DNA of 64,000 nt from Acidobacteriota bacterium (GTDB lineage Bacteria; Acidobacteriota; Vicinamibacteria; Vicinamibacterales; CAVVIG01), in the NCBI GenBank assembly GCA_039931615.1, contig JBDTRR010000001.1:214210-278209 (forward strand). The letters are read 5' to 3'. Numbering within the stretch: the first letter of the stretch is position 1; each line of letters starts with the position of its first letter. The notes under the pieces are model-generated. The model was not told where the DNA came from and made no database searches. It was given only the letters and a program-made list of their open reading frames with translations. The position numbers and the translations under genes are program-made. Below are positions 3,650 to 59,810 of the stretch, piece after piece.

Positions 3650-4669
3650 ATGCGCCAGTGCTACGTCGCGGTGTGTGCCGCGTTCGCGATCGTCAGCCTC
3701 GTCCTCGTCGCTCACGCGCAGGGACCAGCCGTCTCATCAGCGGGACGTGCCGGCCGCCGGACCTACCAGGTGCCGCGCACGCCGTGGGGTGATCCCGACC
3801 TCGAAGGTAAGTGGCCCGGCAGCCTTGCCTCCGGCATTCCGCTGCAGCGTGCCGAGTCACTCGGCACGCGCGACACGCTCAACGATGCGGAATTCGCCGA
3901 CCGCGTGGCGCAGGCCGAACGCCAGAAGGATCAAGACGTCGCCGGCTTCGACTTCGATCACCCGAGCGTTCCCTTCGGAGTGGTCGGTGGGGGGCAGTCG
4001 CCGCCGCAGCACTGGTTCGAACGGTCCGCGCCGCAACGCCAGGCGTCGTTGATCGTCGATCCGCCGAACGGCCGCCTGCCGGCCATGACGCCGGCCGCAC
4101 AGCAGCGCATCGCCCAGCGGCGCGCGCGCGAGAACGGCGACTCCGCCTCGTACACGGACTTCACCCTGACCGAGCGCTGCATCACGCGCGGCCTCACCGG
4201 CTCGGTCCTGCCCGGCGGCTACAACAACGGGAACCAGATCGTGCAGTCGCCCGGGTTCGTGACCTTCGTCAACGAGATGATCCACGAATCGCGCATCGTG
4301 CCGCTCGACGGGCGGCCCCATCCGGGTCCGGCCATTCGCACCTACCTGGGCGACTCGCGCGGCCAGTGGGACGGCGATACACTGGTGATCGAGACGACGA
4401 ACTTCCTCGACCGGGCGGGTGTGGGCATGAGCGGCGCCGGCGCCAGCGACGCGCTGCAGATCACGGAACGCTTGACGCGCACCAGTGCCACGACCCTCGA
4501 TTACTCGCTGACCGTCAGCGACCCGGTGACGTGGACCGCGCCCTTCACGATCCGCTTCGACCTCGGCCGTGACGACCGCTATGGCATGTTCGAGTACGCG
4601 TGCCACGAGGGAAACTACGCGCTGCAGAACATCATGAGTGGCCAGCGCTTCGAGGAACGCAGTCGCTGA
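3650..4669 (+). CDS. Exported hypothetical protein (paralogue of 18095..18988)
   Basis: ATG at 3650 preceded by GGAGGGG. Signal peptide MRQCYVAVCAAFAIVSLVLVAHAQG. Shares blocks with the 18095 gene (DGRPHPGPAIRTYLGDSRGQWDGDTLVIETTNFLD, ITERLTR..TLDYSLTVSDPVTWTAPFTIRFDL, EYACHEGNYAL). No family recognised. Confidence 0.6.
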   Translation: MRQCYVAVCAAFAIVSLVLVAHAQGPAVSSAGRAGRRTYQVPRTPWGDPDLEGKWPGSLASGIPLQRAESLGTRDTLNDAEFADRVAQAERQKDQDVAGFDFDHPSVPFGVVGGGQSPPQHWFERSAPQRQASLIVDPPNGRLPAMTPAAQQRIAQRRARENGDSASYTDFTLTERCITRGLTGSVLPGGYNNGNQIVQSPGFVTFVNEMIHESRIVPLDGRPHPGPAIRTYLGDSRGQWDGDTLVIETTNFLDRAGVGMSGAGASDALQITERLTRTSATTLDYSLTVSDPVTWTAPFTIRFDLGRDDRYGMFEYACHEGNYALQNIMSGQRFEERSR

Positions 4670-4702
4670 CCTGGTCGGCTTCACTCTGAGGGCAATCACC
4701 GC

Positions 4703-6229
4703 ATGAAGTTGACGTCGATGGCGTGCGTAGTGGCCGTCGTGGCCTGCCTCCCCGCGAGCAGCGCGTTTGCCGCCACCTGCGAGAACCTCGCGAAGCTCGC
4801 GCTCAAGGACACGGCCGTCACCAAGGTGGAGGTGGTCGCGCCTGGCACGTTCCAGCCGCCCGACGGCCAACCGCGTGGCCGGAACCCGTATCAGGCGCTG
4901 GGTCAGTTCTGCCGCGTCGCGGCGACGCTGACGCCGACGAGCGACTCCGACATCAAGATCGAGATCTGGCTCCCGGCCAGCGGATGGAACGGGAAGTTCC
5001 AGGCGGTCGGCAACGGAGGCTGGGCAGGCATCATCAGCTACGCGGAGATGGCCGAGGCGCTGCAGAGCGGCTATGCCACGGCGTCGACCGACACCGGGCA
5101 CGCCGGAGGCCGCGGCACGTTCGCGCTCGGGCATCCTGAAAAGCTCGTCGACTTCGCGTGGCGTTCCGAGCACGAGATGACCGCCAAGGCCAAGGAGGTG
5201 GTCAACGCCTTCTACGGCTCGGCGCCGAAGCTGTCCTATTGGAACGGCTGTTCGACGGGCGGACGGCAGGGGCTCAAGCTCGCTCAGATGTTTCCCGATG
5301 ACTACGACGGGATCATCGCCGGTGCGCCGGCCAATCGCACCGCCATCTCGCTCTGGATCGCGGACGCGGTACTGAGAGATCCTGCCAGGTACATTCCGCC
5401 GGCCAGGTATGCCGTCATCCACCAGGCGGTGCTCGCCGCGTGCGACGCGGGCGACGGGGTGAAGGACGGCCTGATCGACGATCCGCGGCGATGCCGGTTC
5501 GACCCGGCGGTGCTGCTCTGCAAGGAAGGGGACGGCCCGGCGTGCCTCACGGCGCCACAGGTCGCGGCGGCCAAGCAGATCTACGCGAATGCCGTGAACC
5601 CGCGGACCAAGAAGGAGCTCTTCTCGTCGTTCGTGCCGGGCAGCGAACTCGGGTGGGGTGCGCAGGCGGCCGGCCCCGACGTGCAGGCCATGACCTACGA
5701 CCAGTATCGCTACGTCGTGTTCAAGGATCCGAACTGGGATTGGAAGACGTTCGACTTCGACCAGGACGTCGTGACCGGCGATCAGCCGGAGAACCTGATC
5801 ATGAACGCCACGAACCCGGACATGCAGGCGTTCTTCTCACACGGCGGCAAGTTGATCATGTACCACGGCTGGAGCGACCCGCTCGTGCCGCCGGTGAACA
5901 CCATCAAGTACTACGACCAGGTCGTGGCACAGATGGGCGGCGCGGCCAAGGCGGCGGGGCACGTGCGGCTCTTCATGGCGCCCGGCATGGGTCACTGCGG
6001 CGGCGGAGAAGGCCCCGACACGTTCAACAAGGTCAAGGCGATCGAGGACTGGGTGGAGCGCGGCAAGGCGCCCGCGCGCTTCGAGGCGTCACACAGCACC
6101 AACGGGCGCGTCGACCGCACGCGTCCACTTTGTCCATATCCGCAGGTGGCCCGGTACTCAGGGACGGGCAGCATCGACGACGCCACCAACTTCAGGTGCG
6201 TGTCGCCGCAAACGGCTGGCACCCAGTGA
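4703..6229 (+). CDS. Tannase/feruloyl esterase family alpha/beta hydrolase (secreted)
   Basis: Signal peptide [23 protein letters not shown]. Nucleophile elbow GCSTGGRQG and overall similarity to the tannase/feruloyl esterase family. 508 aa. Confidence 0.85.
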
Positions 6230-6330
6230 GCATCTCGAAGAGCACGCATCCAAACGCCCAGATATCGGTTCGGCGATCCGCCTTCTGGCCGCGCGCCTGC
6301 TCCGGACTCATGTATAGAGAACCAGGACTT
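6193..6330 (-). pseudogene. Remnant of a Hanks-type Ser/Thr kinase (C-lobe subdomains VIII-X only)
   Basis: Minus-strand frame gives (stop)[45 protein letters not shown](stop). This has the canonical G(T/S)xxYMSPE and DIWAxGCVLxEMLTG motifs. No N-lobe is upstream. It overlaps the 3' end of the tannase gene on the opposite strand. Confidence 0.4.
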
Positions 6331-6946
6331 CAAGACGACTGGCCGCAATAAGAAGAAAATATCTCGATCATCCGAGACTGGCGGCTCCGGAACGCCTCTC
6401 GTGGCCGCTCGTCTCGGGAGCCTTCCTTTGCACGGACTGGGTACGCGTCCGTTGAAGCGGCAGGAACGGTAACGTAACCCGCTGCCATCGCGGGTATCGG
6501 GCTGATCGCGGTTCTGGCGCTTCAGGCCGTCCTGGTCACGGCGACGGTTCTGCCACGCAGCCTTGCCGCTCTGATACGCCCGCCGGGTTGGTATCGCCCA
6601 GACTGTGGTTCGTCGCGGCGCTGCCTCGCCCTGGCCACGGACGTATCGATGGTGCGGATGTCGATAACGACCTCGAGGGTTGACCTGCTAGAAGTTCGCC
6701 GGTTCGATCGCCCCGAGCCGCCGCAACTGCAAACCGCTGATTCCACATTGCGATTTGATGTCACCGAATCGAGGCCGCTCCATGGAATGACGTCAGTCCG
6801 ACAGCGAGGACCGCGAGTTCTGCGGTTCTCGGGTACGCTGTTGGCATCAACGGAGCACTGTGCGACGAGTCTTTGAGAGCTCCGCCGCCGGGGTGTGAAC
6901 GATCCAGCCCTCCGGCACTCCCAAAAGGGCAAGCCCCCGGCCATTT

Positions 6947-7837
6947 ATGCCGCGAATCGACCCCACGATTGATTTTGATCCCAATTCGCCGCCCTTCGAT
7001 CAATTCAAGGGCATTCAACTGCTGGCCCACGACCGCCGCGGTCACGTCTCGTTTGAAACCGCCCGCCACCACCTCTACGTCGGGCGCCATAAACAGACCC
7101 AGGAGGACGTGCTCATCAAGATCACCTCCAGGCCCGGGCTCACCTACCAGGACAATCTGAAGAATGAGATCGCGACCCTGCTGACCATCAATGGCTCGAT
7201 GCCCGACTCGCCCTATTTTCCGCTCATCCGGGAACACGGCAAGGTGCGCGACGGCAGGATCTATATCATCTCGTCTTTCTTCGCTGAATTTCCGCTGGCG
7301 ACAGCGATCGGTCCGGAACGGATCCCCGGCCGCACCGTCGCCTACCTGCGCACGGCGTTGGAAATCGCGCACGCGCTGGAAGAATTGCACGGCCTGCAGA
7401 TCTACCATGTCGACTTGAATCCGATGAATGTCCTGCTCCGGCTGGCACGGGACCGGCCGATCATCCGGATTATCGATTTCGAATCTTCCTATGAGTCGGC
7501 CCGGCATTCAGCCGACGTCTTTTACAACCCGCCCAACACCCCCGGCTACTCCGCGCCGGAGATATTCCATCAGGCCCCCGATGCCCGTTCGGATGTGTTT
7601 TCACTGGGCGCGGTGCTGTATACGATGCTGGCCGGCTACAAATGGACCTGGGGCGCCGACGTGGCCGGGCGCGTCACGGACGATGCCGAGATTGATTCGG
7701 ACCTCAAGGACATCCTGCTCAAAGCGACCGATTCGAATCCCGACCATCGCTACCGGTCGATGGCCGGGTTCCACGGTGATCTCGCGGATCATCTGGAACG
7801 CATTTGGCCGGGAAGAAGCGTCGGCGGGTCCTGGTAA
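6947..7837 (+). CDS. Divergent stand-alone protein-kinase-like protein (ePK fold, atypical motifs) on a low-GC island
   Basis: VLIKIT (beta3 Lys), LKNEIATL (alphaC Glu), YHVDLNPMNVLL in place of HRDLKPxN, IIDFES in place of DFG, GYSAPE (APE), SDVFSLGAVLY. No glycine-rich loop. GC ~57% with many A/T-ending codons versus ~70% in flanks. Confidence 0.7.
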   Translation: MPRIDPTIDFDPNSPPFDQFKGIQLLAHDRRGHVSFETARHHLYVGRHKQTQEDVLIKITSRPGLTYQDNLKNEIATLLTINGSMPDSPYFPLIREHGKVRDGRIYIISSFFAEFPLATAIGPERIPGRTVAYLRTALEIAHALEELHGLQIYHVDLNPMNVLLRLARDRPIIRIIDFESSYESARHSADVFYNPPNTPGYSAPEIFHQAPDARSDVFSLGAVLYTMLAGYKWTWGADVAGRVTDDAEIDSDLKDILLKATDSNPDHRYRSMAGFHGDLADHLERIWPGRSVGGSW

Positions 7838-8081
7838 CGCGACCGATCCCTTCAGCCAGAAACTGCTCGCGCAGTATGACTCGCTCTACCCGGGGCACGC
7901 GAAGTTCACGGGCGGCAGCGCGTGTTCCGGACTTTCCGGCACTCTTGCCGGAAGATCGTCACTGCTGCGCCCCCGCTGCGGGCTGACCGGCGCGTCGCTG
8001 TAACGCGGCGGCGGTTGAGAAGCGGTATTCTTTCCCGGTAATCTTGCCAACCGACATTGATTATCGCGGGGTCAGCCACTC

Positions 8082-10049
8082 ATGCAATCTTTCGGAACCG
8101 CATTGTTCTGTCTTCTCACGGCGTCCGTTGCGAATGTGCTGTTCGCGCAGTCTCAGGGCTCAGTGGCGCAGCCGGGCGCCGTCGATCTCGAGCTGCCGAC
8201 GACGCAAGCGATCGGCGTCGAGTGGCGCATTCAGGGCGACGACAACCGCAATGCGTCCGTCGCTGTGGCGTGGCGCCGGACCGGCGACACGGCGTGGCGT
8301 GACGGTCTGCCGCTGCTTCGGTTGCAGGCCGAAGCAGTGCAGCAGGGCGCATCCTTTCATTACGTGGCGCCGAACATGTTCGCGGGCAGCGTGTTCGACC
8401 TCGAACCCAACACGTCGTATGACGTTCGGCTGCGGCTGACGGACCCGGACGCGCCGGCGGGCACTTCGCCCGTCGAGCGAACGGTCGCGGCCCGCACGAG
8501 ACCGGTCCCGAAACCCGCGACGGGCGGTGCGGTTTATCACGTGTATCCGCGCGATTACACCGGCCCGAAGCTGGAGCCGAGCTTCAACTCCCTGATGGCG
8601 GCGTACAACACCGGCGCGAACGGCGCCGATTTCGTCAATTCGTTTCAGCCGCGTGTGAAGCCGGGCGATGTCATCCTGGTTCACGCCGGGACGTATCGAG
8701 AGGATCGGCGGCGCTACGCGGGGCCGAACTCGACTCTGTTCGACGGCACGTTTTATCTCACCGCCGACGGCGCGGCGGACAAACCCATCGTCATCAAGAG
8801 CGCGGGGGACGGCGACGTCATCTTCGATGGCGGCGGCAACGCAGTGTTGTTCGATCTGACCGCGGCCGACTACCACTACGTCGAAGGGATTACGGTCCGC
8901 AACACGGATGTCGCCTTTCTACTCGGGCACAAACGCATCCTCGGCGCCGTTGGATTCACACTGAAGAATTCCCGGATCGAGAACGTCGGACGCGGCGTCT
9001 TCACCGATTGGGGCGGAGCGCGTGACTTCTACATCGCCGATAACGTTTTCATCGGCCGCAACGATCCGACGCGGCTGATGGGATGGATCGGACGCACCTG
9101 GCAAGACCTGCCGGGTTTTCCTCAACCGCTGCTCTCCGAGTACGGCGTGAAGGTTTACGGCTCGGGCCACGTGATCGCCCACAACCGCGTCGAGAACTTT
9201 CACGATGGAATCGACCACGCGACGTACGGCGATCCCGACGGCTGGCCGGAGAACCCGATCATGCCGGTTTCGACGGACATCATCGGAAACGATATCCGCA
9301 ACGTCGATGACAACTGCATCGAAGCCGACGGGAGCGCGCAGAATTTCCGCATCATCGAGAATCGATGCTTCAATATGGCGCATCGCGCGCTCTCCACGCA
9401 GCCCGCGCTGGGCGGGCCGATCTACTTCATCCGAAACATCGTCTACAACGCTCCCGAAGGCGGCGCCCTCAAAATCACGGCAAATTCGGCCGGCGTACTC
9501 GTCTATAACAACACGTTCCTTTCGGAAGTTCATCAGATGGGACCGGCGTCGAATCTCCACTTCCGGAACAATCTTGTTCTGGCGCAAGGCGCGTGGCCCG
9601 AGGTCTTCTCGATCGAGACGTTCACGCCGTGGTCGACTTCTGATTACAACGGATTTAGTTTGTCCGCTGCCGCCGGTTCTTCGCTGTTCGCCTGGGCGGC
9701 GCCGGCTGACGCTGCGGTCACGTACGAGGCCCGGGCAGCGCGTCCGGTTCAGTCGTTCGCCGACTTGAAGATCTACTCGGATCGCACTGGCCAGGATCGG
9801 CAGAGCCGAATGATCGACTGGTCGATATTCCGCAAAGCCAGTCCGCCGGCGAAGGGCGATCCCACGCGGCTGTATCGACCGGAAGACCAGGACTTCACGC
9901 TGGCTGCCGGATCCGGGGCAATCGATGCGGGTACGGTTCTGCCCGGCGTCACAGATGGCTTTACGGGCACGGCGCCGGACCTGGGCGCGCTGGAATCGGG
10001 GCGGGTCGTTCCGGCTTATGGCCCGCGGCCGCTTTCGGATCAACCGTAA
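8082..10049 (+). CDS. Secreted right-handed parallel beta-helix protein with N-terminal FN3/PAP-like domain (putative polysaccharide-active)
   Basis: Signal peptide MQSFGTALFCLLTASVANVLFAQS. N-terminal beta-sandwich region (NTSYDVRLRLTDPDAP). Repeated beta-helix turns (NNTFL, FRNNLV, IIGNDIRN). Confidence 0.7.
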   Translation: MQSFGTALFCLLTASVANVLFAQSQGSVAQPGAVDLELPTTQAIGVEWRIQGDDNRNASVAVAWRRTGDTAWRDGLPLLRLQAEAVQQGASFHYVAPNMFAGSVFDLEPNTSYDVRLRLTDPDAPAGTSPVERTVAARTRPVPKPATGGAVYHVYPRDYTGPKLEPSFNSLMAAYNTGANGADFVNSFQPRVKPGDVILVHAGTYREDRRRYAGPNSTLFDGTFYLTADGAADKPIVIKSAGDGDVIFDGGGNAVLFDLTAADYHYVEGITVRNTDVAFLLGHKRILGAVGFTLKNSRIENVGRGVFTDWGGARDFYIADNVFIGRNDPTRLMGWIGRTWQDLPGFPQPLLSEYGVKVYGSGHVIAHNRVENFHDGIDHATYGDPDGWPENPIMPVSTDIIGNDIRNVDDNCIEADGSAQNFRIIENRCFNMAHRALSTQPALGGPIYFIRNIVYNAPEGGALKITANSAGVLVYNNTFLSEVHQMGPASNLHFRNNLVLAQGAWPEVFSIETFTPWSTSDYNGFSLSAAAGSSLFAWAAPADAAVTYEARAARPVQSFADLKIYSDRTGQDRQSRMIDWSIFRKASPPAKGDPTRLYRPEDQDFTLAAGSGAIDAGTVLPGVTDGFTGTAPDLGALESGRVVPAYGPRPLSDQP

Positions 10050-10299
10050 CGTCCTGTCACTTCCGGCCGATGAACGACCGGAGCATCGGGACCATATGAA
10101 ATGGTTGCTGGGCATCGCGCGGCAGTTGATCCCTGGCGTGAATCGATGGAGGGACCGCTTCGGCATCGGCGATTTCCGAGACGTGCCCCAGGCCAGCGGA
10201 CCCCAGGTGCGCAAGCAGGGGATCGACGAACCGCAGACGCGCATCGCGCCGCGCCGCGGTCGTATTCCCTCGAACACGTACCGAGGCGTCGACAAACGA

Positions 10300-10620
10300 G
10301 ATGGCTGACGAGCGCTCCGGCCATGACGCCGATCGCGACCAGGGCGCCCATTGACGCGGTCGCGGACACCATCAAGAAACGGACGCGATCAGCTCGACCA
10401 CGCCCGAGCCGATCCGTCCCCAGTGCTCGACTCCGGCAACGCCCAGAAGCTGACCCAGTGTGCCGAAGATGTGGACCGATTCTTCGGCGCCCGTAAACTT
10501 GAAGAACAGGGTTGCAGCAGGATCGCGGCCACCAGAAACCGCACGATCCAGCTGACGACGGCTTCGGCCTTCGAGAGCTTGTTCAGGCCGGTTGGATGAC
10601 GCTGGCGGCGGCGTTACACC
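10300..10620 (-). pseudogene. DoxX-family membrane protein gene disrupted by two frameshifts (tentative)
   Basis: Three consecutive minus-strand frames each give DoxX-like hydrophobic segments: AVVSWIVRFLVAAILLQ, then LFFKFTGAEESVHIFGTLGQLLGVAGVEHWGRIGSGVVELIASVS(stop), then MVSATASMGALVAIGVMAGALVSHLV. Read by eye only. Confidence 0.3.
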
Positions 10621-10733
10621 GCGCGACGACTGTAACGCGCAGTCCGTTCAGGCATCCAAAGGGGGGGCCGACCTGGGGGGCCGATGGACCCACCTCGACG
10701 ATTTGGGCCGAAGATCAGATTGGCCGGGGCCGT

Positions 10734-12980
10734 TCAGCTCTCACCTACGCTCACGGGCCAGGGCTGCTGTGTGTTGGATCCCTGCGGCAGCACAGCGTAC
10801 GCCGCCGTCGTCTCTCCTGCCGCCTCCGAATCCCAGATTAGCGTCGAGGAGGAGAAGCGGATGAATCCATCCTCCTTCAACTGCATCAGCCCGAACAGAC
10901 AGACCTTCTCAGGCGGAATGCCGTCCACGTCCATTCCGAGCGCCGCGCACTCGCGGACGACTTCGCCGACGGTCCGGTGGCCATCGCACAAGCGCAGCAA
11001 TGCCGCCGACAGCGCCGGCAGCTGCCACACGTTGAGCGTCGCCTCGTTGCGGCTGAACACGATCGTCGTGTTTCGCGAGCCGATGGCGTCGAGGTCGGTC
11101 CTGTTTCGCAGGCACTCTATGAGTTCCTTGTAGTCCACTTCGACGTCGACGACACAGAGCCCGTCGGCGCAGTAGGCAACGGTGGAATCCGTCAGGCGAT
11201 CCGTTGCTTCGGCGGAGGCCGGCTGGGGCTGATGAATCGTGGCCTGCTCGGCCCGCGCCACTGCGCGTACCGCCGCGTTCGCCCTGGCCATTTCCGGCAG
11301 GTAGCAGGCGTGCACGAATTCGAGAAGGTCGGTGTGGAACCTTCGGTGCGAATGGTAGGGAGTCCAACCGATCTGCTCGTCTGTGTCGACAGGAGATCGT
11401 TCCGCCCGCCAGCGGCGCCACCGTTCGAAGACCAGCAGCAGATCGCCGCTGTCCTGCAGGAGCACCACCGGGAGCCAGCGGAACCAGGTCGCCAGGTAGG
11501 TGACGAAGTCGACCACGTCCTTCACCTCGCGCCGATCGAGGTGGGCCATCGGAATCGCGTAGAAGTTGGGGAACACGGCAGGATGCGCCTTGATCAGGGC
11601 GGCCTCAACCGGATCCTGCTGCCAGCTCTGATGCGACATGTCCGAGAAGAGATCGTCAAAAATCAAGTGATCCCGGTGCTGCTCGTAGATCGGTGTCGCG
11701 GCCAGCGGAGCCAGCAGCGAACACTGCGGCTCGACGTGGTCGTAGCGCAGCGAATCGACGAAGAAATGAATCGTGTCCCGAAGGTCGTCGCGCGTTTCTT
11801 CAGGGAAGCCGACGATCAATGCGACCGTGGTGTTGATGCCGTGGCGATCGGCGCAGGCAATCCGCTCCTTGGCCTCTGCCAGATCGAGCTGCTTGTTGAT
11901 GACCTGCTGCAACCGCTGCGATCCGGTCTCGATCCCGAAGAAAATGCCGGTACACCCAGCCCTGGCCATGAGCGCCAGCAGTTCGTCGTCGATGCAGTCG
12001 GTCCGGGCACTGCAGCCCCAGGTCAGGCCTTCCCCACTGGCCAGCATTGCCTCGCAAAAGGCCATCACTTCCTTGCGATCGATGGTGTACATGTCGTGGA
12101 CGAGGCTGAAGTAACGAAGGCCGTACTCCTTGTGGATGGCACTCATATCGGCAACCATCCTGGCCGGCGACTTGAGACGGAAGTTCCTCCGGAAGAAATC
12201 GTTGGTCGAACAGAACGTGCAGGCGAACGGGCAGCCTCTGCCAATCTCGAGGTGGACGCCGCCGCGCTGTCGCAGCCGCGAATCGAGATCGAACGCCGGC
12301 AGCGGCAGCCGATCCAGGTTTTCAACAACCGGGGCGTTCGGGTTGCGAACGATCTCGTCGCCGCGCCTGAACGTAATGCCGCCGAGCCGCTGCCATGCCG
12401 CGTCGGGATGGGCCAGGTGATGCAGGAGTGTGGGGAACGTGTCGTCGGCTTCGCCCCGGACGATGATGTCCACGGACGGGAAGGCGCGCAGCGTCGCCAC
12501 GTCCGCCACGGAGGCCTGCGGCCCACCGCCGACGATCGTGCACAGTGGGTTCGATCGCTTGATCGCATTGGCGAGGCGGAGCGTGAGCGGGTAGGAGCTG
12601 CAAATCGAGCTCAAGCCGAACACGTCGAAATCTCCGGGCCGGAGCTGCGCCGCCACGAACGCAAAGAAGGATTTCGACCGGGTCGTTTTCTCGCCGAGAT
12701 GCTGTGGACCGCCATCGGCCGGCGTGGCGCGCCGACGATCGCTCCGTCCGATGAATTCGAAGAACAGGTCGTCCAGGTTGACGACGACGGGAGCATGGCC
12801 ACGATCGCGCAGCAGGGCCGCGAGTGTCAGGACGCCCAGTTGTGCACCGGTGTTCACGTGCGCGTCGACGATCAGATCCGGATCGATGAAGTCGGCGACG
12901 GTCAGCGCGGTGACGAGGCACACGGAGGGCAGGGGGCCGGGGCCGCACGGCGGGACAGCGTGCGCGTCGTGAAGACGCAA
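10734..12980 (-). CDS. B12-binding radical SAM enzyme with C-terminal PqqD/RRE-like peptide-recognition domain
   Basis: B12-binding N-domain (VCLVTALTVADF...GLSSICSSYPL). rSAM cluster GCPFACTFCS (CxxxCxxC). C-terminal ATLNVWQLPALSAALLRLCDGHRTVGEVVRECAALGMDVDGIPPEKVCLFGLMQLKEDGFIRF matches the PqqD/RRE pattern. The ORF-track N-terminal 90 aa are an over-extension. The real start is probably a TTG/GTG near 12921-12990, just after the stop of the small upstream ORF. Confidence 0.8.
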   Translation of the reverse strand: MRLHDAHAVPPCGPGPLPSVCLVTALTVADFIDPDLIVDAHVNTGAQLGVLTLAALLRDRGHAPVVVNLDDLFFEFIGRSDRRRATPADGGPQHLGEKTTRSKSFFAFVAAQLRPGDFDVFGLSSICSSYPLTLRLANAIKRSNPLCTIVGGGPQASVADVATLRAFPSVDIIVRGEADDTFPTLLHHLAHPDAAWQRLGGITFRRGDEIVRNPNAPVVENLDRLPLPAFDLDSRLRQRGGVHLEIGRGCPFACTFCSTNDFFRRNFRLKSPARMVADMSAIHKEYGLRYFSLVHDMYTIDRKEVMAFCEAMLASGEGLTWGCSARTDCIDDELLALMARAGCTGIFFGIETGSQRLQQVINKQLDLAEAKERIACADRHGINTTVALIVGFPEETRDDLRDTIHFFVDSLRYDHVEPQCSLLAPLAATPIYEQHRDHLIFDDLFSDMSHQSWQQDPVEAALIKAHPAVFPNFYAIPMAHLDRREVKDVVDFVTYLATWFRWLPVVLLQDSGDLLLVFERWRRWRAERSPVDTDEQIGWTPYHSHRRFHTDLLEFVHACYLPEMARANAAVRAVARAEQATIHQPQPASAEATDRLTDSTVAYCADGLCVVDVEVDYKELIECLRNRTDLDAIGSRNTTIVFSRNEATLNVWQLPALSAALLRLCDGHRTVGEVVRECAALGMDVDGIPPEKVCLFGLMQLKEDGFIRFSSSTLIWDSEAAGETTAAYAVLPQGSNTQQPWPVSVGES

Positions 12981-12984
12981 TCGA

Positions 12985-13167
12985 TCAGACAACTTCGTTT
13001 TTGGACTTGGCCCGGACGTCGACGACCATGAGCTTCGACTTGGCGATCGCCGCGCTGTTCGCACCGAGGGTCTCGACGAGCTGCTTCTGAAAGGCCTTCT
13101 GAAGAGCGTCCTTCTGCTTCTTGGTGAGACTGAGTTCCGTCGGAATCTGAATCTCGATGTTCGCCAC
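12985..13167 (-). CDS. Small lysine-rich ORF (60 aa), candidate RiPP precursor / leader-like peptide
   Basis: GTG at 13167 preceded by GGAGG (13172-13176), 4 nt spacer. Encodes (M)ANIEIQIPTELSLTKKQKDALQKAFQKQLVETLGANSAAIAKSKLMVVDVRAKSKNEVV. Stop is 5 bp upstream of the rSAM coding start region. Amphipathic helix segment loosely resembles NHLP/Nif11-type leaders. Confidence 0.4.
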   Translation of the reverse strand: MANIEIQIPTELSLTKKQKDALQKAFQKQLVETLGANSAAIAKSKLMVVDVRAKSKNEVV

Positions 13168-13262
13168 GATGCCTCCAGGAATTGAGCCGCACCCTGACGC
13201 CGGAGACCGGCGCATGAATTCCGGGCGCACGCTAACACGCCTGATCCCAGGCCCGCAAGCAC

Positions 13263-14141
13263 CTATTTCTTCTGTTGCGCCTCCGCTTGGCGGACGCTCT
13301 CTGCGAATGACTTTTCCGCGTTCGCCACCATCGCCTTGAACGCCTCGGCGTCCAGGCATGTGACGCAGAGCGGATTGACGGGGAGCGCGGGGTTCAACGG
13401 ACGGCCGAGGTTCTGCCGGTGATTGTGAAGGAAGAGGTCCGGAGGCTGGAGCGCCTTCATCCTTTGCAAGGTCATCCTGGTATCCTCGATCACCTTGGGG
13501 TGCCTGGGATTGCCGATGAGTTGAAGTCCCGCGTTGGGAGTTTCACCGCCGCGGAATGCGACCGAATAGTTCTTGCCGCCTTCCGAGACGGTGGTCATCC
13601 ACACGGTGGCCCCCTGCGTATGCCCCGGCACCCAGAGGGCGCGCAAGGTCACGCCGCCCAGAGAAATCGTCTCTCCGTCCTTGATGACGCGATCGACGTG
13701 GACCGCCACCATGCCGCGGAAGCCCCCAGCGGAGTTGTCCTGACCGGCTTCAAGCGCTGCCGCATCGCCGCCGAGGGCGATGACCTGCGCTCCGGTCAAT
13801 TTCTTCATCGCCGCGTGTCCCTGGACGTGATCAAAATGCGCATGGCTCGAGATGATCATTTTGATGTCCTTGACGTCGAACCCCAGCTTCTTGACGTTCG
13901 ACACGATCACGTCGTGCATCTCGCTGGTGCCCGTGTCGTGGAGGATGTGGCCCTGCGGAGTCGTGATCAGATAAGAGCCATACTCGCCGCCGACCCAATA
14001 GATGTTGCCGATGATGCGGAAGCCTTCGGGCGGGCGCGCCTGATTCTGCGCCTGAATGGGTTCGACGCGTCCCGCGGCGCCGAGCGGTGCGATAATCCCG
14101 ATTGCCGCACCGAGCAGCATCAACGTACTAATCTGACGCAT
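13263..14141 (-). CDS. Subclass B3-like metallo-beta-lactamase fold hydrolase (periplasmic)
   Basis: Signal peptide MRQISTLMLLGAAIGIIAPLGAAG. Zinc motif SSHAHFDHVQG (HxHxDH), later His (WVPGHTQG). Length 292 aa. Confidence 0.85.
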   Translation of the reverse strand: MRQISTLMLLGAAIGIIAPLGAAGRVEPIQAQNQARPPEGFRIIGNIYWVGGEYGSYLITTPQGHILHDTGTSEMHDVIVSNVKKLGFDVKDIKMIISSHAHFDHVQGHAAMKKLTGAQVIALGGDAAALEAGQDNSAGGFRGMVAVHVDRVIKDGETISLGGVTLRALWVPGHTQGATVWMTTVSEGGKNYSVAFRGGETPNAGLQLIGNPRHPKVIEDTRMTLQRMKALQPPDLFLHNHRQNLGRPLNPALPVNPLCVTCLDAEAFKAMVANAEKSFAESVRQAEAQQKK

Positions 14142-14229
14142 AAGACCTCCGTCAACCTGTCATGGCCGGGCTCTGAAGCTCTGCCATCTTCCGGGAACTG
14201 AACCGGCCGAGTAAAGATGACCCTCGCCG

Positions 14230-15054
14230 CTACCGCGCGCCGACGCCCCTGCTCTCCGCACGTACGGTGACGACCACGCGGCGCGTGAGGTAGTCGTCGA
14301 TCCCGGTGGCTGTCGCGGGCTCGTCGTGCCAGGTCACCTTGTACGACGGCGCGTTCAGCTTCGCTCCCTGCAGCAGCACGGCAACCTGTTCCGCGCGCCG
14401 TTTCCCGATCGTGGGATCCTCGGCCATCGTCTGTCCGTTCGAGAGACGCACGGCGCCCCGGTGGCCGACGATCTCGATCTCCCGGGCGTTCGCCGCGCGC
14501 GCGAAATCAAGGATGTCGGACAGCAGGCGCGCATGGCTGAAGCCCACCGTGCCGTCGAAGTCGTAGGGCACGGTGAACTCTCTGCTCGAGGCGGCCGCGG
14601 ACGGCGGCGGCGGGACCGGCCGGGCGTTGTCGAAGGCCAGGCGTCCCTTGCTCGGCCCGGGGGGCCGCGGTGGTTCGAACGTCAGGTTGTAGCGCTCTTC
14701 AGCAGGCAGCATGGTGTTGCACGACGCGTCGCGCTCGGGGAGCACCGAGAGATGCACCGGCTTGAGCACGATGCCGCCGCAGATGCGGGGCTCAGCCGAG
14801 ACGGTCCCTTCCACCAGCACGCGGTGACCGAGCCACGGCGGGGTGACCGGTGCGCTCACGTCGGTCTGCAGCGTGAGGAAATACAGCTCGCCCTCGTACT
14901 CGGCGAGCCAGCAGGGCACCGAGGCCGTATCCCGAACAATCGGGCAGCTCACGAAGTTCCGGCGGGGCTCCTCGGCGCGGATGCCGACCGCGCCGGCGAC
15001 GAGCCCACCAGCCAGCAGCCAGGCGCCGCCTCGACTCATCCGGTGCGCGTGCAT
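14230..15054 (-). CDS. OmpA-family C-terminal domain protein (exported)
   Basis: ATG at 15054 overlaps the TGA of the upstream cytochrome gene (TGATG). Signal-like MHAHRMSRGGAWLLAGGLVAGAVG. C-terminal OmpA-like region (FDGTVGFSHARLLS...IEIVGHRG...DDYLTRRVVVTV). The ORF-track 5' extension overlaps the upstream gene and is rejected. Confidence 0.7.
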   Translation of the reverse strand: MHAHRMSRGGAWLLAGGLVAGAVGIRAEEPRRNFVSCPIVRDTASVPCWLAEYEGELYFLTLQTDVSAPVTPPWLGHRVLVEGTVSAEPRICGGIVLKPVHLSVLPERDASCNTMLPAEERYNLTFEPPRPPGPSKGRLAFDNARPVPPPPSAAASSREFTVPYDFDGTVGFSHARLLSDILDFARAANAREIEIVGHRGAVRLSNGQTMAEDPTIGKRRAEQVAVLLQGAKLNAPSYKVTWHDEPATATGIDDYLTRRVVVTVRAESRGVGAR

Positions 15055-16613
15055 CAGAGTGCTCCCAGAAAGTTGACGAGATCCTGCTTTTCCAGTTCCG
15101 AGTAGCCGATGTTGTAGCGGCGGTCGTAGAAGGCCACCAGTTCGCGCAGGGTCGTGGCCGAGCCGTTCGAGAAATAGGGCGCCCGCGCCGCCAGCCCGCG
15201 GAACTGCTGCATGACGATCGTGCCGACGTCGTTGCACTGACCCGAAATGAGCGCCCGCCCGGGGTCCTGCGTGTAGATCACCCGGCCCAGGAAGGGATGC
15301 TCCTTCACCGTCGGCTTGCAGGTGATCCGGAACAGCGGCATCTGCGGTCTCGCGTCGGTCCAGGGATTCAGCGGCACTTCCGACGCCCACGGCAGGTTCG
15401 TGGTGCCGATGTCCATCCAGCCGTTGGCCGTGTCCATGCCGGTCATGTGCATGCCGTGGCAGGTGGCGCAGGTCCGCTTGGCCGGATTGCCGAGGCCGAC
15501 CGAGTTCAGGTGCATCGAGTCCCTGATCCAGAACGTGCGGAACATGAACACGTCGTGTCCGCGCGCGATCGACTCGCGCGCCGCGTGGCGCGCATTCTCG
15601 GCCTCATCGCCGGCGCGGGGCAGCTGGACCCACTTGCCGCCCATCGGAAAGACGTAGCGCGTGGTGTTGTTGCCGAGCACGCCGGCGTCAGCGGCGGCGA
15701 GATTGCGCGGCCCGAACGCCGGGGGGCCGTCGGGCTCGACGAGGCTGCCGGCCCCGGGGCTCGCGACTTGGGCGACGTAGACCTGGGCTTCGAACCCGGT
15801 GATGCGCGCGATCTGTGCGGCGCTGAGTGTTCCGGTGATCTGCAGATGCTTCTCTGCCGCGTCTTCCGCCTGCACGGCCAGCGTCGCCGCGCGCGCGTCA
15901 GACATCAGGTTCATGCTGGTCGGCTTGCCCGTCAGCGGATCCGTGGCCGTCGGCATCCCGTTCTTGCCGATGAAGGGGCCGATGCCAAAGTTCTGGTGCG
16001 TCGTGTATTTCGTGTTCGCCACGGCGCGGGGGCGGCGGAAGACCGAAATCGACGGGCTCGCGCTCTGCAGCCCGTAGCGGGGGTCGGTGTTGCAGCCGCT
16101 CGGATCCCGCACGACTTCGATCGTGAACTCCGGATCGATGCGCGTTCCATCCGGACGCTGGGGCGGCCAGGGCAGCGCAATCCTGAACAGGCCGCGCTCG
16201 ATCAGGAGCGAGTGGGAGCGCGGATCGTCCGGCGGCAGATTGGGGCAATTCATGCCGTCCACAGCGGCAAACAGGGCATCCTTGCCGGCGGTGGCCGCCC
16301 ACCGCTCGCGAATGCTGCGCACCGAAAGCGACATCCCGTCCGCCGGCTGGTGGCAGGTAACGCAGGCGCGGCCGTTCGTGCCGATCGCCTCGAAGAACGG
16401 GTGCCCCTTGGTGTCCAGCTGACCGGACGCGTTCAGCACGCCAAGCTGGCCGCGGTCGCTGTCGTAGGTCGAGAAGTCCGCCAGCGGCGTCCCTTGCCCT
16501 GGCGCCCACCACGCCGTCGATGAGTCGGCGGCCGCCGCCCCGAGGGCGGCGGAAATCCCAAGAGCGAGAAGCAGGCTGGCGGTCGCGACCGGATGCGTGT
16601 GCCGATTCTTCAT
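15054..16613 (-). CDS. Di-heme c-type cytochrome, peroxidase/MauG-related oxidoreductase (exported)
   Basis: ATG at 16613 and signal peptide MKNRHTHPVATASLLLALGISAALGAAAA. Two CxxCH motifs (CVTCHQP and CATCHGMH) separated by ~300 aa, which is unusually long for classical CCP. 519 aa. Confidence 0.8.
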   Translation of the reverse strand: MKNRHTHPVATASLLLALGISAALGAAAADSSTAWWAPGQGTPLADFSTYDSDRGQLGVLNASGQLDTKGHPFFEAIGTNGRACVTCHQPADGMSLSVRSIRERWAATAGKDALFAAVDGMNCPNLPPDDPRSHSLLIERGLFRIALPWPPQRPDGTRIDPEFTIEVVRDPSGCNTDPRYGLQSASPSISVFRRPRAVANTKYTTHQNFGIGPFIGKNGMPTATDPLTGKPTSMNLMSDARAATLAVQAEDAAEKHLQITGTLSAAQIARITGFEAQVYVAQVASPGAGSLVEPDGPPAFGPRNLAAADAGVLGNNTTRYVFPMGGKWVQLPRAGDEAENARHAARESIARGHDVFMFRTFWIRDSMHLNSVGLGNPAKRTCATCHGMHMTGMDTANGWMDIGTTNLPWASEVPLNPWTDARPQMPLFRITCKPTVKEHPFLGRVIYTQDPGRALISGQCNDVGTIVMQQFRGLAARAPYFSNGSATTLRELVAFYDRRYNIGYSELEKQDLVNFLGAL

Positions 16614-16748
16614 ATTGGGCTCGGGGCCACCTGGCCGGTCGGGCAGTGTCGATTGCCACCTCGCCAACGGGATTATATTGTTGTCCGCTCGACCGGCAAG
16701 GCTCGGTCAAAAAATCAGCAAATCACGGTCATGAATGCAAAGTGAGCC

Positions 16749-22576: not shown

Positions 22577-24205
22577 CTATTTCGATAACCGGTGTGCTCC
22601 ATCGACCGCGATGGTCCTCGCTTCGCCGGTGTAGTCCACCGCGCTCCTATCGAGATGCGGTTGGTACTCGGACCACCATTCCCGCGCGCTGGCGCCGTCC
22701 CAGGGCTCCACCGGACACGCTTCGACCCGGCGCCGGAGTTCCGCGGCACTCTGGGGCCGGCGGTTCGGATCCTTGCTGAGACACGCGAGCACGATCGCTT
22801 CGAGCTCTGCCGGAACGGCGATCCCACGCGCCGACAGCGGCGCCGGCTCCTGGTGGAGATGCTGGCCGCACACCTCGACCGTCGACTTCCCGTCGAAGAC
22901 ATCCTGCCCGGCGAGCAGGTGGTAGGCAACCGCCCCCAGGGCGTAAATGTCAGTCCGGACATCGACCGCGTCCGGCTGCAGGATGGACTCTGGCGCCATA
23001 TACATGGGTGTGCCAACGACCGTACTCGCACCGGTCAAGTTGATCTTTCGATCGACCTCAAATTCCTTGACCAGGCCGAAGTCGAGCAGCTTGACGACGT
23101 CGCGCTCCCCGCCTTGCGTGCACAGCATGATGTTGGCCGGCTTGATGTCGCGATGGATCAAGCCGATGGCATGGGCTTCCGTCAGTGCGCCGCAGACCAT
23201 CGACAAGACCCGCACCACCCTGCCTGCCGGCTGCGCGCCAGCGACCGCGACGATCCGCTGCAGGGTGGCGCCGTCGAGGAGCTCCATCGCGTAGTAAAAG
23301 ACGCCGTCGTCGGTTCGCCCGTAGTCGAAGATCGTGATGGTGTTGGGGTGGGTGAGACGCGCGGTCAGCTGGACTTCGCGCTCGAAGCGCTGGAGGTTGA
23401 CCTCGCCGGCCCGATCCGCCCGCAGCAGTTTGATCGCCGAGGGGCGCCGCATCATGCCGTGGCGGGCCCGGTAGACCTCCCCCATGCCCCCTTCGCCGAG
23501 CTTGGCTTCGAGCACGTACTGGCCGAATCGGCGCGCCGCACGAATTTCGGCCCGGAGGCCGTAGATGACCCACGAGATGACGGCACACGCGATGACGGCG
23601 AACCCCCACAGCATGGCGGCGTTGGCAGCCAGCCAGGAATAGGCGCCCCAGTCGAGCGCGCGCCACGCGAGCCGACCAGCGGGGGAGCGGACCATGAGGG
23701 TCGACACCAGAATCAGCGGGGCGCCGACCATGGCCGTGACGACGGTGGTGCGGCGAGGAGAAGACGGGATCAGGGCGGCGCGAATCGCGACGATCATCGC
23801 GGTTCCCCCCAGTTCCATCATCGCCACGTAACCGTCGGCCATGATGGCGCCTTCTGCGCTGACGACCGAATAGTCGCGGATGAACGCGGCCACGAGGTAG
23901 CGCCCAAGGAAGGCGCCCATGATCGCACTGGCCACCATCCCGCCCCCGTCCACGAGACGAGAGAACCGGATCGACCGCTCCGGCCCGCGGCACAGCCACC
24001 AGAAAATGCCGGCCAGGGCGGCCTCACCCAGACTGAAGAACAGGTCTGCGCCGGGGTCAACCATCGCCCCGAGGGCGCCGAGGCCACTGCCCAACAGAAG
24101 AATGAAGAACTTCACCTTCCAGAAGAGCGCCAGCCGGCTCTGAAGAAAGGCGCGGCCCTCCTCGCTGTTGTCGCTGAGCGACGATGGCCTCTGACTCGCC
24201 ATCAT
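22577..24205 (-). CDS. Membrane-anchored Hanks-type Ser/Thr protein kinase
   Basis: Multi-TM N-terminus, then the kinase domain: LGEGGMGEVYRA, AIKLL, HRDIKPANIML, DFGLVK, GTPMYMAPE. Confidence 0.8.
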   Translation of the reverse strand: MMASQRPSSLSDNSEEGRAFLQSRLALFWKVKFFILLLGSGLGALGAMVDPGADLFFSLGEAALAGIFWWLCRGPERSIRFSRLVDGGGMVASAIMGAFLGRYLVAAFIRDYSVVSAEGAIMADGYVAMMELGGTAMIVAIRAALIPSSPRRTTVVTAMVGAPLILVSTLMVRSPAGRLAWRALDWGAYSWLAANAAMLWGFAVIACAVISWVIYGLRAEIRAARRFGQYVLEAKLGEGGMGEVYRARHGMMRRPSAIKLLRADRAGEVNLQRFEREVQLTARLTHPNTITIFDYGRTDDGVFYYAMELLDGATLQRIVAVAGAQPAGRVVRVLSMVCGALTEAHAIGLIHRDIKPANIMLCTQGGERDVVKLLDFGLVKEFEVDRKINLTGASTVVGTPMYMAPESILQPDAVDVRTDIYALGAVAYHLLAGQDVFDGKSTVEVCGQHLHQEPAPLSARGIAVPAELEAIVLACLSKDPNRRPQSAAELRRRVEACPVEPWDGASAREWWSEYQPHLDRSAVDYTGEARTIAVDGAHRLSK

Positions 24206-24396
24206 TCGCGAGTGATAGCGAGCCTGATTTCCGCCCGGGTGACTCGCCGCGGGTGCGTCATCTCCGGTCGGCCATGGCCATCGGAACTGCAAGCCGCGCG
24301 ACACGGGCAAGCCACGAGCGGCACAGCACGGAGCGTATCATCCCTCGTTGCCGCGACGCGTCTCCGGACCGCCTCTTCAGACAGCTCGACGTCAGC

Positions 24397-52807: not shown

Positions 52808-53110
52808 CGGCGTGACTCTCCGTCCGCCGCGACGCGAACGATGACCAGGCAGCAGCCGCGCGATCCCGCTCCGACGCTGCCCGGCCGACGCGCCTGTCCG
52901 CCCGCGGCCGCCCTATTGTACTAGCGAGGCTCCGCCTCAGACCGCCGAGCACCGCCAGGCGGGTGTTGGCTCCGCCTCGCTAGAGCAGTGTTGTTTGCCC
53001 CGCCCCCGGCGGGGCGAGACGTCTCGAAGGCCGGTTGATAAAACTTGACTCGTTCGCACGGATTTCCGGCCTTCAAGCCGTCTAGTCCTGAGAGTCGACT
53101 ACCATGGGGC

Positions 53111-54370
53111 ATGAACGGTTCGGCTCCCAGGCGGCTGCCCCTGTTCGATCCCGACCCGCCACGCCTGGCATCAACAGACTCCGGCGCGGTACGGCCATTC
53201 GTCGATCTGGTCAGGGACTTCAGCGAATTCGGACAGCCGTCGACCGCGGTGCGCGAAGGCCAGATCCTCTACTTGATCAATGAATTCTGGACCGCTGGCC
53301 AGCGTCAGGCGCACTCGATCCATGAGGTGAGCTACCGGGCGTGCTTCAAGCCGCAGCTCCCGGAGTTCTTCATCAGTCGTCTCACCCAGCCCGGCGACGC
53401 CGTCTACGATCCGTTCATGGGGCGCGGAACGACTCCCGTTCAAGCCGCTCTGCTGGGGCGCCGCCCGATCGGCAACGACGTCAATCCGTTGAGTGTCCTG
53501 TTCACCCGGCCCCGGCTGGCGCCGCCACCTCTCAGCGCGGTGGCGAGCCGCCTCGACGACATCAAGTGGGACGAGGGCGAGATCGTGGAGCCGGATCTCC
53601 TGGCCTTCTACAGCCCGCGAACCCTTCGTCACGTCTGCGCGCTTCGCAGCTGGCTGATTGAACGCACGCCATCGGACCATGCCCCTGACCCGGTTGACGA
53701 CTGGATTCGGATGGTCGCCATCAACCGTCTCTCCGGCCACTCCCCGGGCTTCTTCTCGGTCTATACCCTGCCGCCGAATCAGGCGGTCTCGGCGGCCTCC
53801 CAGCGGATCATCAACGAACGACGAGGACAGACACCTCCCGACCGCGACGTGAAGAAGCTGATTCTGAAGAAGACGGCCGCACTGCTTCGCGACGGCACGA
53901 TGCCGTCTCACCCACCATCGTTGCTGACCACTGGCGCCGCCCAGTCGACGCCGGCGATCGCTGACGGTGCCGTTCAGTTGGTGGTGACCTCACCACCGTT
54001 CCTGAACATCGTGCAGTACGCCGCGGACAACTGGCTCAGAAGCTGGTTCGCGGGGATCGACGTCGCCAGCGTGGCGATCGCGCAGCACCGCACCGAAGCC
54101 GGATGGCAGACCATGGTTCATGACACGCTGATCGAGCTGGCGCGGGTGGTCCATCCAGGCGGCCACGTGGCGTTCGAGGTCGGCGAAGTTCGCCAGGGCA
54201 AGGTCCTGCTCGAACGTCTCGTCTGGGAAGCGGCGGACGGTCTGCCGTTCGACCGGCTGTTCGTGATGGTCAACCAGCAGGAATTCACCAAGACCGCGAA
54301 CTGCTGGGGAGTCAAGAACAACACCAGCGGCACGAATACCAACCGGATCGTCGTTCTGCAGAGACACTAG
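53111..54370 (+). CDS. N6-adenine/N4-cytosine DNA methyltransferase (orphan)
   Basis: Motif I VYDPFMGRGTT (FxGxG) followed ~200 aa later by motif IV VVTSPPF (D/S-PPF/Y). No adjacent restriction endonuclease. Confidence 0.8.
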   Translation: MNGSAPRRLPLFDPDPPRLASTDSGAVRPFVDLVRDFSEFGQPSTAVREGQILYLINEFWTAGQRQAHSIHEVSYRACFKPQLPEFFISRLTQPGDAVYDPFMGRGTTPVQAALLGRRPIGNDVNPLSVLFTRPRLAPPPLSAVASRLDDIKWDEGEIVEPDLLAFYSPRTLRHVCALRSWLIERTPSDHAPDPVDDWIRMVAINRLSGHSPGFFSVYTLPPNQAVSAASQRIINERRGQTPPDRDVKKLILKKTAALLRDGTMPSHPPSLLTTGAAQSTPAIADGAVQLVVTSPPFLNIVQYAADNWLRSWFAGIDVASVAIAQHRTEAGWQTMVHDTLIELARVVHPGGHVAFEVGEVRQGKVLLERLVWEAADGLPFDRLFVMVNQQEFTKTANCWGVKNNTSGTNTNRIVVLQRH

Positions 54371-58997: not shown

Positions 58998-59127
58998 GGT
59001 TCGTGAAGGCGCGGTTCGCTGCGCTCGGCAAACTAGCACAAATATCGGGCCGGTGATGGCCACCGCGGCGGCCGCTCCCGATGACGTCAGACCGTTCCCT
59101 CACGGGATCCGATATATTGAGTCTCGA

Positions 59128-59718: not shown

Positions 59719-59810
59719 CGTCGGTCGACGACTCCAGCGGCTCGCGGCGTCACCGCCGCGGTTTGGAGAGGGCGTCGGCGGGCTGGACGCGAGGGAGACG
59801 GAGGAAATCG

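Follow-up and report, generated by a model that had tools for sequence, protein, structure and literature searches.

A stand-alone non-RD Hanks-type kinase from a small-kinase family found almost entirely in Vicinamibacteria

The kinase gene, its protein and its family

We analyzed a 64,000-nucleotide (nt) stretch of an Acidobacteriota genome (hereafter the window; positions are counted from its first letter) that contains a short protein kinase gene at 6947-7837 on the plus strand. The gene is an intact open reading frame (ORF) of 296 amino acids (33 kDa, isoelectric point 5.9) and encodes a soluble, stand-alone Hanks-type kinase that belongs to a Vicinamibacteria-specific family. A preliminary description, made from the sequence alone, had presented it as the only gene of an island of low guanine-plus-cytosine (GC) content at 6350-8050 that had recently been acquired horizontally. 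It is the sole intact gene between ~6230 and 8081. To its left is a module of two genes, for a secreted protein of unknown family and a tannase; to its right is a gene for a secreted beta-helix protein.

The ORF begins at the first start codon following an in-frame stop, and the N-terminus that this start predicts, MPRxD, is common to the homologues. The protein matched the Pfam domain Pkinase (PF00069) with 66.9 bits (cutoff 31.7), residues 44-245 aligning with positions 16-208 of the 263 in the profile. Its AlphaFold2 (AF2) model has a bilobal kinase fold, with a predicted local distance difference test score (pLDDT) of 78.8 and a predicted TM-score (pTM) of 0.82. The top matches of the model among Protein Data Bank structures, found with Foldseek, were PknS (9eed) and PknB (1mru), with a probability of 1.00, an E value of 1e-13, TM-scores of 0.58-0.69 and 19-23% identity.

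The residues on which kinase catalysis depends were located in HMMER alignments to PknS (9eed) and ULK3, which placed K58, E74, D156, N161, D177 and the APE motif on canonical positions. K58, the Lys of beta3 (VLIKI; codon at 7118-7120), aligns with VAIK of ULK3, and E74 (NEIATL; 7166-7168) aligns with the alphaC Glu of the same protein. The catalytic loop, YHVDLNPMN (residues 153-161; 7403-7429), was aligned to HRDLKPSN of PknS. The DFG motif is DFE, with Gly changed to Glu and the Mg-binding D177 kept (residues 177-179; 7475-7483; aligned to IDFG of PknS), and the activation segment ends with SAPE (residues 202-205; 7550-7561; aligned to MSPE of PknS). Also present are the alphaF Asp motif, DVFSLG (residues 216-221), and the subdomain XI Arg, R268, which is conserved in at least 90% of members. 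The eukaryotic protein kinase (ePK) fold and the five motifs listed in the preliminary description were thus all found, by Pfam, HMMER alignment and AF2.

The departures from the canonical pattern are equally clear. The GxGxxG loop is missing, as had been noted. LAHDRRGHVS stands in its place and lies outside the Pfam alignment, which starts at residue 44; RRGHVS (residues 30-35; 7034-7051) occupies the position of the glycine-rich loop and keeps a single Gly, G32. The catalytic loop retains D156 and N161, but the Arg of HRD is Val, making the protein a non-RD kinase, and the catalytic-loop Lys is Asn. The absence of a sensor or transmembrane domain also stood: there is no transmembrane segment (the maximum of KD19, the 19-residue Kyte-Doolittle hydropathy average, is 1.31) and the Pfam scan found no additional domain. 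The protein has no signal peptide or secretion signal.

We found more than 1400 homologues of ~291 amino acids that are 50-80% identical. The best 120 are 260-324 amino acids long (most are ~290) and 61-81% identical to the window kinase. A profile search of 1.84 billion representatives clustered at 50% identity returned, besides fragments, a single full-length cluster (500 bits) and then matches at or below 160 bits to unrelated multidomain kinases. This drop in score indicates that the family is tight and isolated. A scan of one genome per GTDB species gave 76 loci, nearly all of them in metagenome-assembled genomes (MAGs) of Vicinamibacteria/Acidobacteriota, with one or two copies per genome (two in several). 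Nearly all of the family, then, is confined to the acidobacterial class Vicinamibacteria, a soil group, and its members are small soluble kinases. No description of the family was found in literature searches. It is an uncharacterized family inside the well-known Hanks-type class, with a motif set that is unusual yet conserved.

We measured conservation in an alignment of 18 members (62-80% identity). K58, E74, D156, N161 and D177 are invariant in this alignment, and the atypical motifs (the RRGH segment, HVD, DLNPMN and DFE) are conserved along with them. In the loop segment, G32 and S35 are invariant, with conservation of at least 90% at R30 and H33. Invariance extends over H154, D156, L157, N158, P159, M160 and N161 in the catalytic loop, over D177, F178, E179, S180, S181 and Y182 at and after DFE, and over A203, P204 and E205. 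Most of the activation segment, alphaG and a C-terminal LExIWPGR motif are also invariant. The ratio of nonsynonymous to synonymous substitution rates (dN/dS) was 0.18-0.25 against five relatives, at a dS of ~0.85, and the nearest homologue is 80% identical in amino acids and ~79% in nucleotides. The gene is under purifying selection.

The surrounding DNA

The low-GC region is real, but smaller in depth than had been described. Mean GC is 66.3% over the window and 61.7% over 6350-8050 (60.2% in the ORF and 62.2% in the spacer at 6230-6946). This dip of ~4.6 points puts the region among the lowest 0.6% of 1.7-kb windows, so that composition is not uniform; uniform GC had been named in advance as a finding that would speak against an island. 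The reported fall from ~70% to ~57% overstated the effect, and GC of 53-56% is reached only in sub-windows of 100-200 bp. The low stretch is also wider than had been claimed: of all 8-kb blocks in the window, 6201-14200 has the lowest GC, 62.9% compared to 66.2 ± 1.2%. The four genes of this block (encoding the kinase, the beta-helix protein, a radical S-adenosylmethionine (SAM) enzyme and a metallo-beta-lactamase (MBL)-fold protein) all have a GC content at third codon positions (GC3) of 0.77-0.79 and a codon adaptation index (CAI) of ~0.65; GC3 of the flanking genes is 0.85-0.88.

We compared the kinase gene with the ORFs of the window that have at least 200 codons and a coding-like GC3 pattern (36 ORFs; the CAI was built from other genes). 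Its total GC was the second-lowest of the 36 (z = -2.3). Its GC3 was 0.766 compared to 0.81 ± 0.037 (rank 5 of 36, z = -1.2) and its CAI was 0.653 compared to 0.678 ± 0.047 (z = -0.5). Both values are within the range of the host, indicating that codon choice is host-like, and the abundance of A/T-ending codons reported earlier proved to be weak. The deficit is mostly at codon positions 1 and 2, where the kinase gene has 0.615 and 0.426 and its flanks have 0.652 and 0.492. GC at the second position is 5-7 points under the flanks in 67 of 67 homologous loci, and the deficit is therefore an effect of protein composition. In the clade closest to the window gene (at least 64% identity), GC of the kinase gene is 3-6.5 points below the flanks in every genome. 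The low GC of the kinase gene is chiefly the amino acid composition of its family, and the region adds AT-richer intergenic debris, including a sliver of another kinase gene. Some caution is warranted, in that a mild GC dip in a genome of 66% GC can stem from amino acid composition and intergenic debris.

The ~600 bp upstream of the gene had been called non-coding, which holds for one part and not for the other. The segment 6195-6329 on the minus strand (45 codons between stops) is what is left of another Ser/Thr kinase gene, a canonical one, and covers subdomains VIII-IX (YMSPEQARG...). It matched Pfam Pkinase with 39 bits at profile positions 162-199 and is 73-84% identical in nucleotides to Ser/Thr kinase genes of other loci. 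This remnant starts at the right-hand junction of the tannase module, where the homology with the relative L165 ends (6193), and the last codons and the stop of the tannase ORF fall inside it. There was no sign of a longer pseudogene; no kinase signal was found upstream of the remnant in the three minus-strand frames. A plausible ancestor of the remnant is a 724-amino-acid gene with Pkinase and TPR domains, located on the opposite strand 2.5 kb downstream of the closest tannase (86%) on its contig.

The spacer proper, 6330-6946, has no gene assigned to it and gave no coding or RNA signal. It contains an AT-rich patch at ~6340-6380. No RNA family was found when 5500-8600 was scanned with Rfam at E <= 1. 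Pfam searches of the three minus-strand frames and of the sole plus-strand ORF (6649-6876) found only the remnant, and blastn and tblastx with 6330-6946 matched only an identical contig (L001). No repeats were found in this spacer and no sigma-70-like promoter site was found upstream of the kinase gene. A single hairpin resembling a terminator (6378-6361, minus strand) is within chance expectation. In the closest clade (L003-L012 and L077), a short CCGGCCACC-like motif is located right before the ATG; the window has CCGGCCATTT at 6934-6946. We found no longer conserved upstream element in this clade, and its kinase genes are without a Shine-Dalgarno sequence. In more distant members a TAnnnT-like hexamer is often located 10-25 nt upstream, a position that suggests very short leaders.

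Homology to other contigs falls into three blocks. The first, 3676-6193 on the plus strand, is the module for the secreted protein and the tannase/feruloyl esterase (Pfam Tannase, 401 bits), and is 83% identical in nucleotides to L165 by blastn. In L165 this pair of genes is followed by a molybdopterin oxidoreductase gene, and no kinase is present there. The second block is the kinase gene, 6947-7840; its nucleotide sequence aligns with those of the four nearest contigs from start to stop codon, beginning at 6947 (6967 for L161) and ending at 7836-7844. The third, 7989-10053 on the plus strand, is a single-gene module for the secreted right-handed beta-helix protein (Pfam Beta_helix), with relatives that are 84-93% identical in nucleotides over the whole gene. 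Homology to these relatives starts at 7989-7991 and is limited to 7989-10053, and in none of them does the kinase precede the gene. A 3' spacer, 7838-7988, bounded by the limits of homology, separates the kinase stop codon from this module. Each of the three blocks has different neighbors elsewhere. Judging from these alignments, the locus is a mosaic in which each module holds one or two genes, and 6194-7988, close to the island as originally drawn, is one of its segments.

Relatives of the left flank (L165) and of the right flank (L083, L105 and others) are without the kinase, and none retains both flanks together, so that they offer no empty site. The relatives of the beta-helix gene (L083-L160, from many soil and rhizosphere metagenomes) share only the gene and ~90 bp upstream and differ in their neighbors. 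A second element of ~500-600 bp (L105 16418-17020) is found near the beta-helix gene in variable position and orientation.

We also looked at the neighborhoods of other members of the family. ORF clustering of ~80 loci found no general partner gene, and no defense gene was recognized among the annotated neighbors in 10 gene maps. One homologue is located among gmk, rpoZ, coaBC, priA and genes for HU and a GTPase, and the GC deficit of the closest clade is seen there too. Three clusters recurred near the kinase: ADOP permeases, pyrroloquinoline quinone (PQQ) proteins and a secreted family of unknown function. The latter two were equally dense in control loci and we rejected them as chance. ADOP permeases were commoner near the kinase (17 loci compared to 1 control locus), but in a few related arrangements. 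In one sister clade only (L017, L018, L025, L037, L047, L049 and L067), glnA, for glutamine synthetase, is directly upstream on the same strand. This linkage is the sole recurrent, and possibly functional, neighborhood in the family.

Several other genes of the window are of separate interest. The block at 10734-14159 on the minus strand contains a B12-binding radical SAM enzyme that resembles ApyD (343 bits, under the cutoff of 750) and has an ApyI-like C-terminal region; a gene resembling subclass-B3 metallo-beta-lactamases adjoins it. The first ~190 codons of the radical SAM ORF look non-coding, and a precursor gene for a ribosomally synthesized and post-translationally modified peptide (RiPP) might be located at ~12.7-13.26 kb. 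A homologue of window 15054-16706 comes after the beta-helix gene in L101 and L090, an arrangement suggesting that the radical SAM and MBL block is an insertion. A conventional multidomain Ser/Thr kinase is encoded at 22577-24337 on the minus strand (Pkinase, 154 bits, in the C-terminal half), and an ORF at 53042-54370 on the plus strand has an N6/N4 DNA methylase domain (57.5 bits). Homologues of the M3 metallopeptidase gene at 59121-61676 on the plus strand include some from Paucibacter and Roseateles, which are cultured Betaproteobacteria, with 72-75% identity; these are interleaved with matches from Acidobacteriota, and the gene is a candidate for transfer between phyla. Its 851-amino-acid ORF is over-extended at the 5' end; the annotated protein has 621 amino acids.

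Activity, origin and alternatives

We favor the notion, to which we assign a probability of roughly 0.6, that 6947-7837 encodes an active, cytoplasmic, single-domain, non-RD Ser/Thr kinase of the Hanks type, inherited within its lineage and now located in a rearranged accessory stretch. The kinase is predicted to bind Mg-ATP through the K58-E74 pair together with D177 and N161. The conserved Arg-Arg-Gly-His segment may replace the missing glycine loop in clamping phosphate. D156 would then pass the gamma-phosphate to a Ser or Thr (possibly a Tyr) of a protein substrate, which might dock on the strongly conserved activation segment and the surface of alphaG. Because the motif is HVD, the kinase probably has no need for phosphorylation of its activation loop. 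That is, it would be constitutively competent, with control exerted through expression or through a partner.

Several observations weigh against this interpretation, some against activity and some against inheritance within the lineage. The missing glycine loop, the change of the catalytic-loop Lys to Asn, and DFE could, to judge from the motifs, reduce or alter activity. In the AF2 model, pLDDT is below 50 at residues 28-37, the nucleotide-binding loop, and at residues 194-199, in the middle of the activation segment. The taxonomy of the family is that of MAG labels, and a few of these are discordant (Chloroflexi, 'Bifidobacterium' and Gemmatimonadaceae). In the gene maps of 10 homologue loci the neighbors were unrelated, metabolic or housekeeping genes, and none of these loci was syntenic with the window. 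GC3 in the closest clade is ~3.6 points below that of the hosts, which is not explained by amino acid composition alone. Lastly, relatives with the flanking genes are without the kinase, and the gene may have been inserted at this site in the lineage of the window. Here the absence of synteny reflects an accessory region that is scrambled in general, and not a specific insertion.

The deviant motifs also raise the question of whether the protein is a pseudokinase or scaffold, one that keeps the fold, has lost catalysis or retains it as a vestige, and acts by binding a nucleotide or a partner. Four motifs deviate (RRGH for GxGxxG, HVD, DLNPMN and DFE), and the low AF2 confidence at the nucleotide loop would fit. 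However, the residues that are typically lost in pseudokinases (the beta3 Lys, the alphaC Glu, the catalytic Asp, the Asn and the Asp of DFG) are invariant family-wide. Kinases can be active despite such changes, examples being non-RD kinases and kinases without a catalytic-loop Lys (Tyr kinases, RIO and Bud32), and this too counts against a pseudokinase. We consider loss of catalysis unlikely.

It is rather unlikely, in our estimate, that the family is a distinct Hanks branch in a stronger sense: one with RRGH as its clamp, with Lys to Asn and Gly to Glu retuned for an unusual phosphoacceptor or nucleotide, and with a gene that is perhaps mobile as a start-to-stop cassette within Vicinamibacteria. 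Relocation of such a cassette would explain both the absent synteny and the 3-6 point GC deficit of the closest clade.

The preliminary description had favored recent acquisition, and the corresponding alternative is that the gene is a newly acquired islet, a single-gene cassette for a defense kinase (like PD-T4-6 or Stk2) or for an effector that acts on another organism. Some properties of the locus fit this notion. The kinase gene has the second-lowest GC of the 36 ORFs, it is located on a discrete 1.8-kb segment (6194-7988) between modules with independent relatives, its neighbors differ in every genome with no synteny, and its homology block is gene-sized and extends exactly from start to stop codon. 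The single-gene architecture is that of PD-T4-6, and PADLOC kinase models matched the protein (MkoA, 89 bits; PD-T4-6, 73 bits). These matches are generic, however. An ordinary Ser/Thr kinase of the window, at 22742-24337 on the minus strand, scored 264 bits with PD-T4-6 and 106 bits with MkoA when used as a control, and we rejected the defense reading after this comparison. No member of the family was found among IMG/VR contigs, GenBank phages or PLSDB plasmids, where the only matches were to generic kinases at less than 31% identity. A grouping with phage- or defense-associated kinases, which had been raised as a possibility, is thus not borne out. The neighbors are metabolic or housekeeping genes and not defense genes, and the family is limited to one class with a dN/dS of ~0.2, unlike fast-evolving defense genes. 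The effector idea found no support, as the protein carries neither a signal peptide nor a secretion signal.

Other evidence bears on when the gene arrived. There is no tRNA gene in the 64 kb, no flanking repeat at the kinase segment, and no integrase or transposase recognized among the flanking genes scanned; those neighbors that could be assigned to a family encode the tannase, the beta-helix protein, the radical SAM enzyme and the MBL-fold protein. No donor-like close copy exists: the nearest kinase homologue is 80% identical in amino acids, and ordinary genes of the window have nearest homologues that are at least as close (86% for the M3 peptidase and 86% for the tannase). The beta-helix gene is an outlier, with a nearest homologue of up to 96%. 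Close homologues at syntenic positions with host-like codon usage had been named in advance as a second finding that would speak against an island. Codon usage is host-like; synteny is absent. Given host-like codons, a family that resides in the lineage of the host itself, the lack of hallmarks of mobility and the lack of a close donor-like copy, the claim of recent horizontal acquisition is unsupported, and we regard the islet as quite unlikely. We conclude that the kinase gene is an old resident of its lineage in a rearrangement-prone accessory stretch that is shuffled in modules of one to two genes. Relocation of the gene within the lineage is possible, and a recent import from a foreign source is unlikely.

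It is improbable that the protein is a small-molecule kinase of the eukaryotic-like kinase (ELK) type that acts on a metabolite or a sugar of the cell envelope. In the catalytic loop Asn stands in for Lys, and HxDLNPxN resembles the HxDxxxxN of the Lys-less aminoglycoside, choline, Kdo and fructosamine kinases. There is a weak match to the Pfam Kdo/WaaP family (22.6 bits, residues 139-183), and NCBI annotates one homologue as 'lipopolysaccharide kinase InaA family'. But the Kdo match is limited to the catalytic loop, and the protein retains the ePK-specific APE, alphaF Asp (DVFSLG) and subdomain XI Arg, which small-molecule kinases lack. In addition, its best structural neighbors are protein kinases and it has no conserved operon partner in lipopolysaccharide (LPS) synthesis or metabolism.

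A role as a RiPP tailoring kinase, in which it would phosphorylate a precursor peptide alongside the ApyD-like radical SAM enzyme (10734-13262, minus strand), in the manner of the kinase domains of class III/IV lanthipeptide synthetases, is hardly credible: there are kinase-domain matches to NCBIfam LanL (55.8 bits) and LanKC (38.1 bits), and the radical SAM gene 3 kb away combines a match to ApyD (343 bits) with an ApyI-like C-terminus, but the LanL and LanKC scores are generic and far under the cutoffs (650 and 575), the beta-helix gene lies between, the radical SAM gene is on the opposite strand, and, by comparison with L101, its block seems to have been inserted separately. We rejected the link because the two genes do not co-occur elsewhere, the radical SAM gene accompanying the kinase in none of ~80 other loci. 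NCBIfam matches of the kinase to MAD6, LanL and PknB were all far below cutoffs. TCAD9 (PF19974, the kinase-like domain of ternary conflict systems) was considered and set aside, at 25 bits compared to a cutoff of 40 and with no conserved partners.

If the favored reading is correct and the kinase is active, then the family is a natural example of a minimal bacterial non-RD kinase, of ~290 amino acids and consisting of the catalytic domain only. It would also be a kinase that works without the glycine loop, the catalytic-loop Lys and the Gly of DFG, which is of some interest for kinase enzymology. Activity would also bear on signaling in Vicinamibacteria, an abundant and almost uncultured group of soil bacteria.

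Comparison with known kinases

The window kinase is most like the Hanks-type Ser/Thr kinases, such as PknB of Mycobacterium tuberculosis and PknS of Xanthomonas citri. The fold is alike (Foldseek probability 1.00), and the beta3 Lys, alphaC Glu, catalytic Asp and Asn, Mg-binding Asp, APE, alphaF Asp and subdomain XI Arg are shared. Identity to PknB and PknS is only 19-23%, and the differences are both in architecture and in motifs. The window kinase consists of the catalytic domain only, with no transmembrane segment, PASTA domain or other sensor region. It is without GxGxxG, and has HVD for HRD, DLNPMN for DLKPxN and DFE for DFG.

Lack of the Arg of HRD is a feature of other non-RD kinases, for example EFR and FLS2 of plants (PMC8463890). 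The plant proteins are receptor kinases, and they have no sequence kinship with the window kinase beyond the kinase fold. The analogy is one of mechanism only.

The defense kinases PD-T4-6, Stk2 and MkoA resemble the window kinase in being single genes or in their kinase-domain architecture, and the hidden Markov models (HMMs) of this group matched it with 73-89 bits. The window kinase scores below an ordinary Ser/Thr kinase, and its gene has no defense-island or mobile-element context. The Kdo/WaaP/InaA kinases (PF06293) are similar over ~45 residues of the catalytic loop (22.6 bits, cutoff 21.3, 46 of 207 profile positions). This match is not domain-wide; the window kinase has the ePK-specific motifs of the C-lobe, and its gene has no LPS gene context. 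Based on these comparisons, the closest known counterparts of the window kinase are the Hanks-type Ser/Thr kinases, from which it is set apart by its minimal architecture and by a set of altered motifs that its family has conserved.

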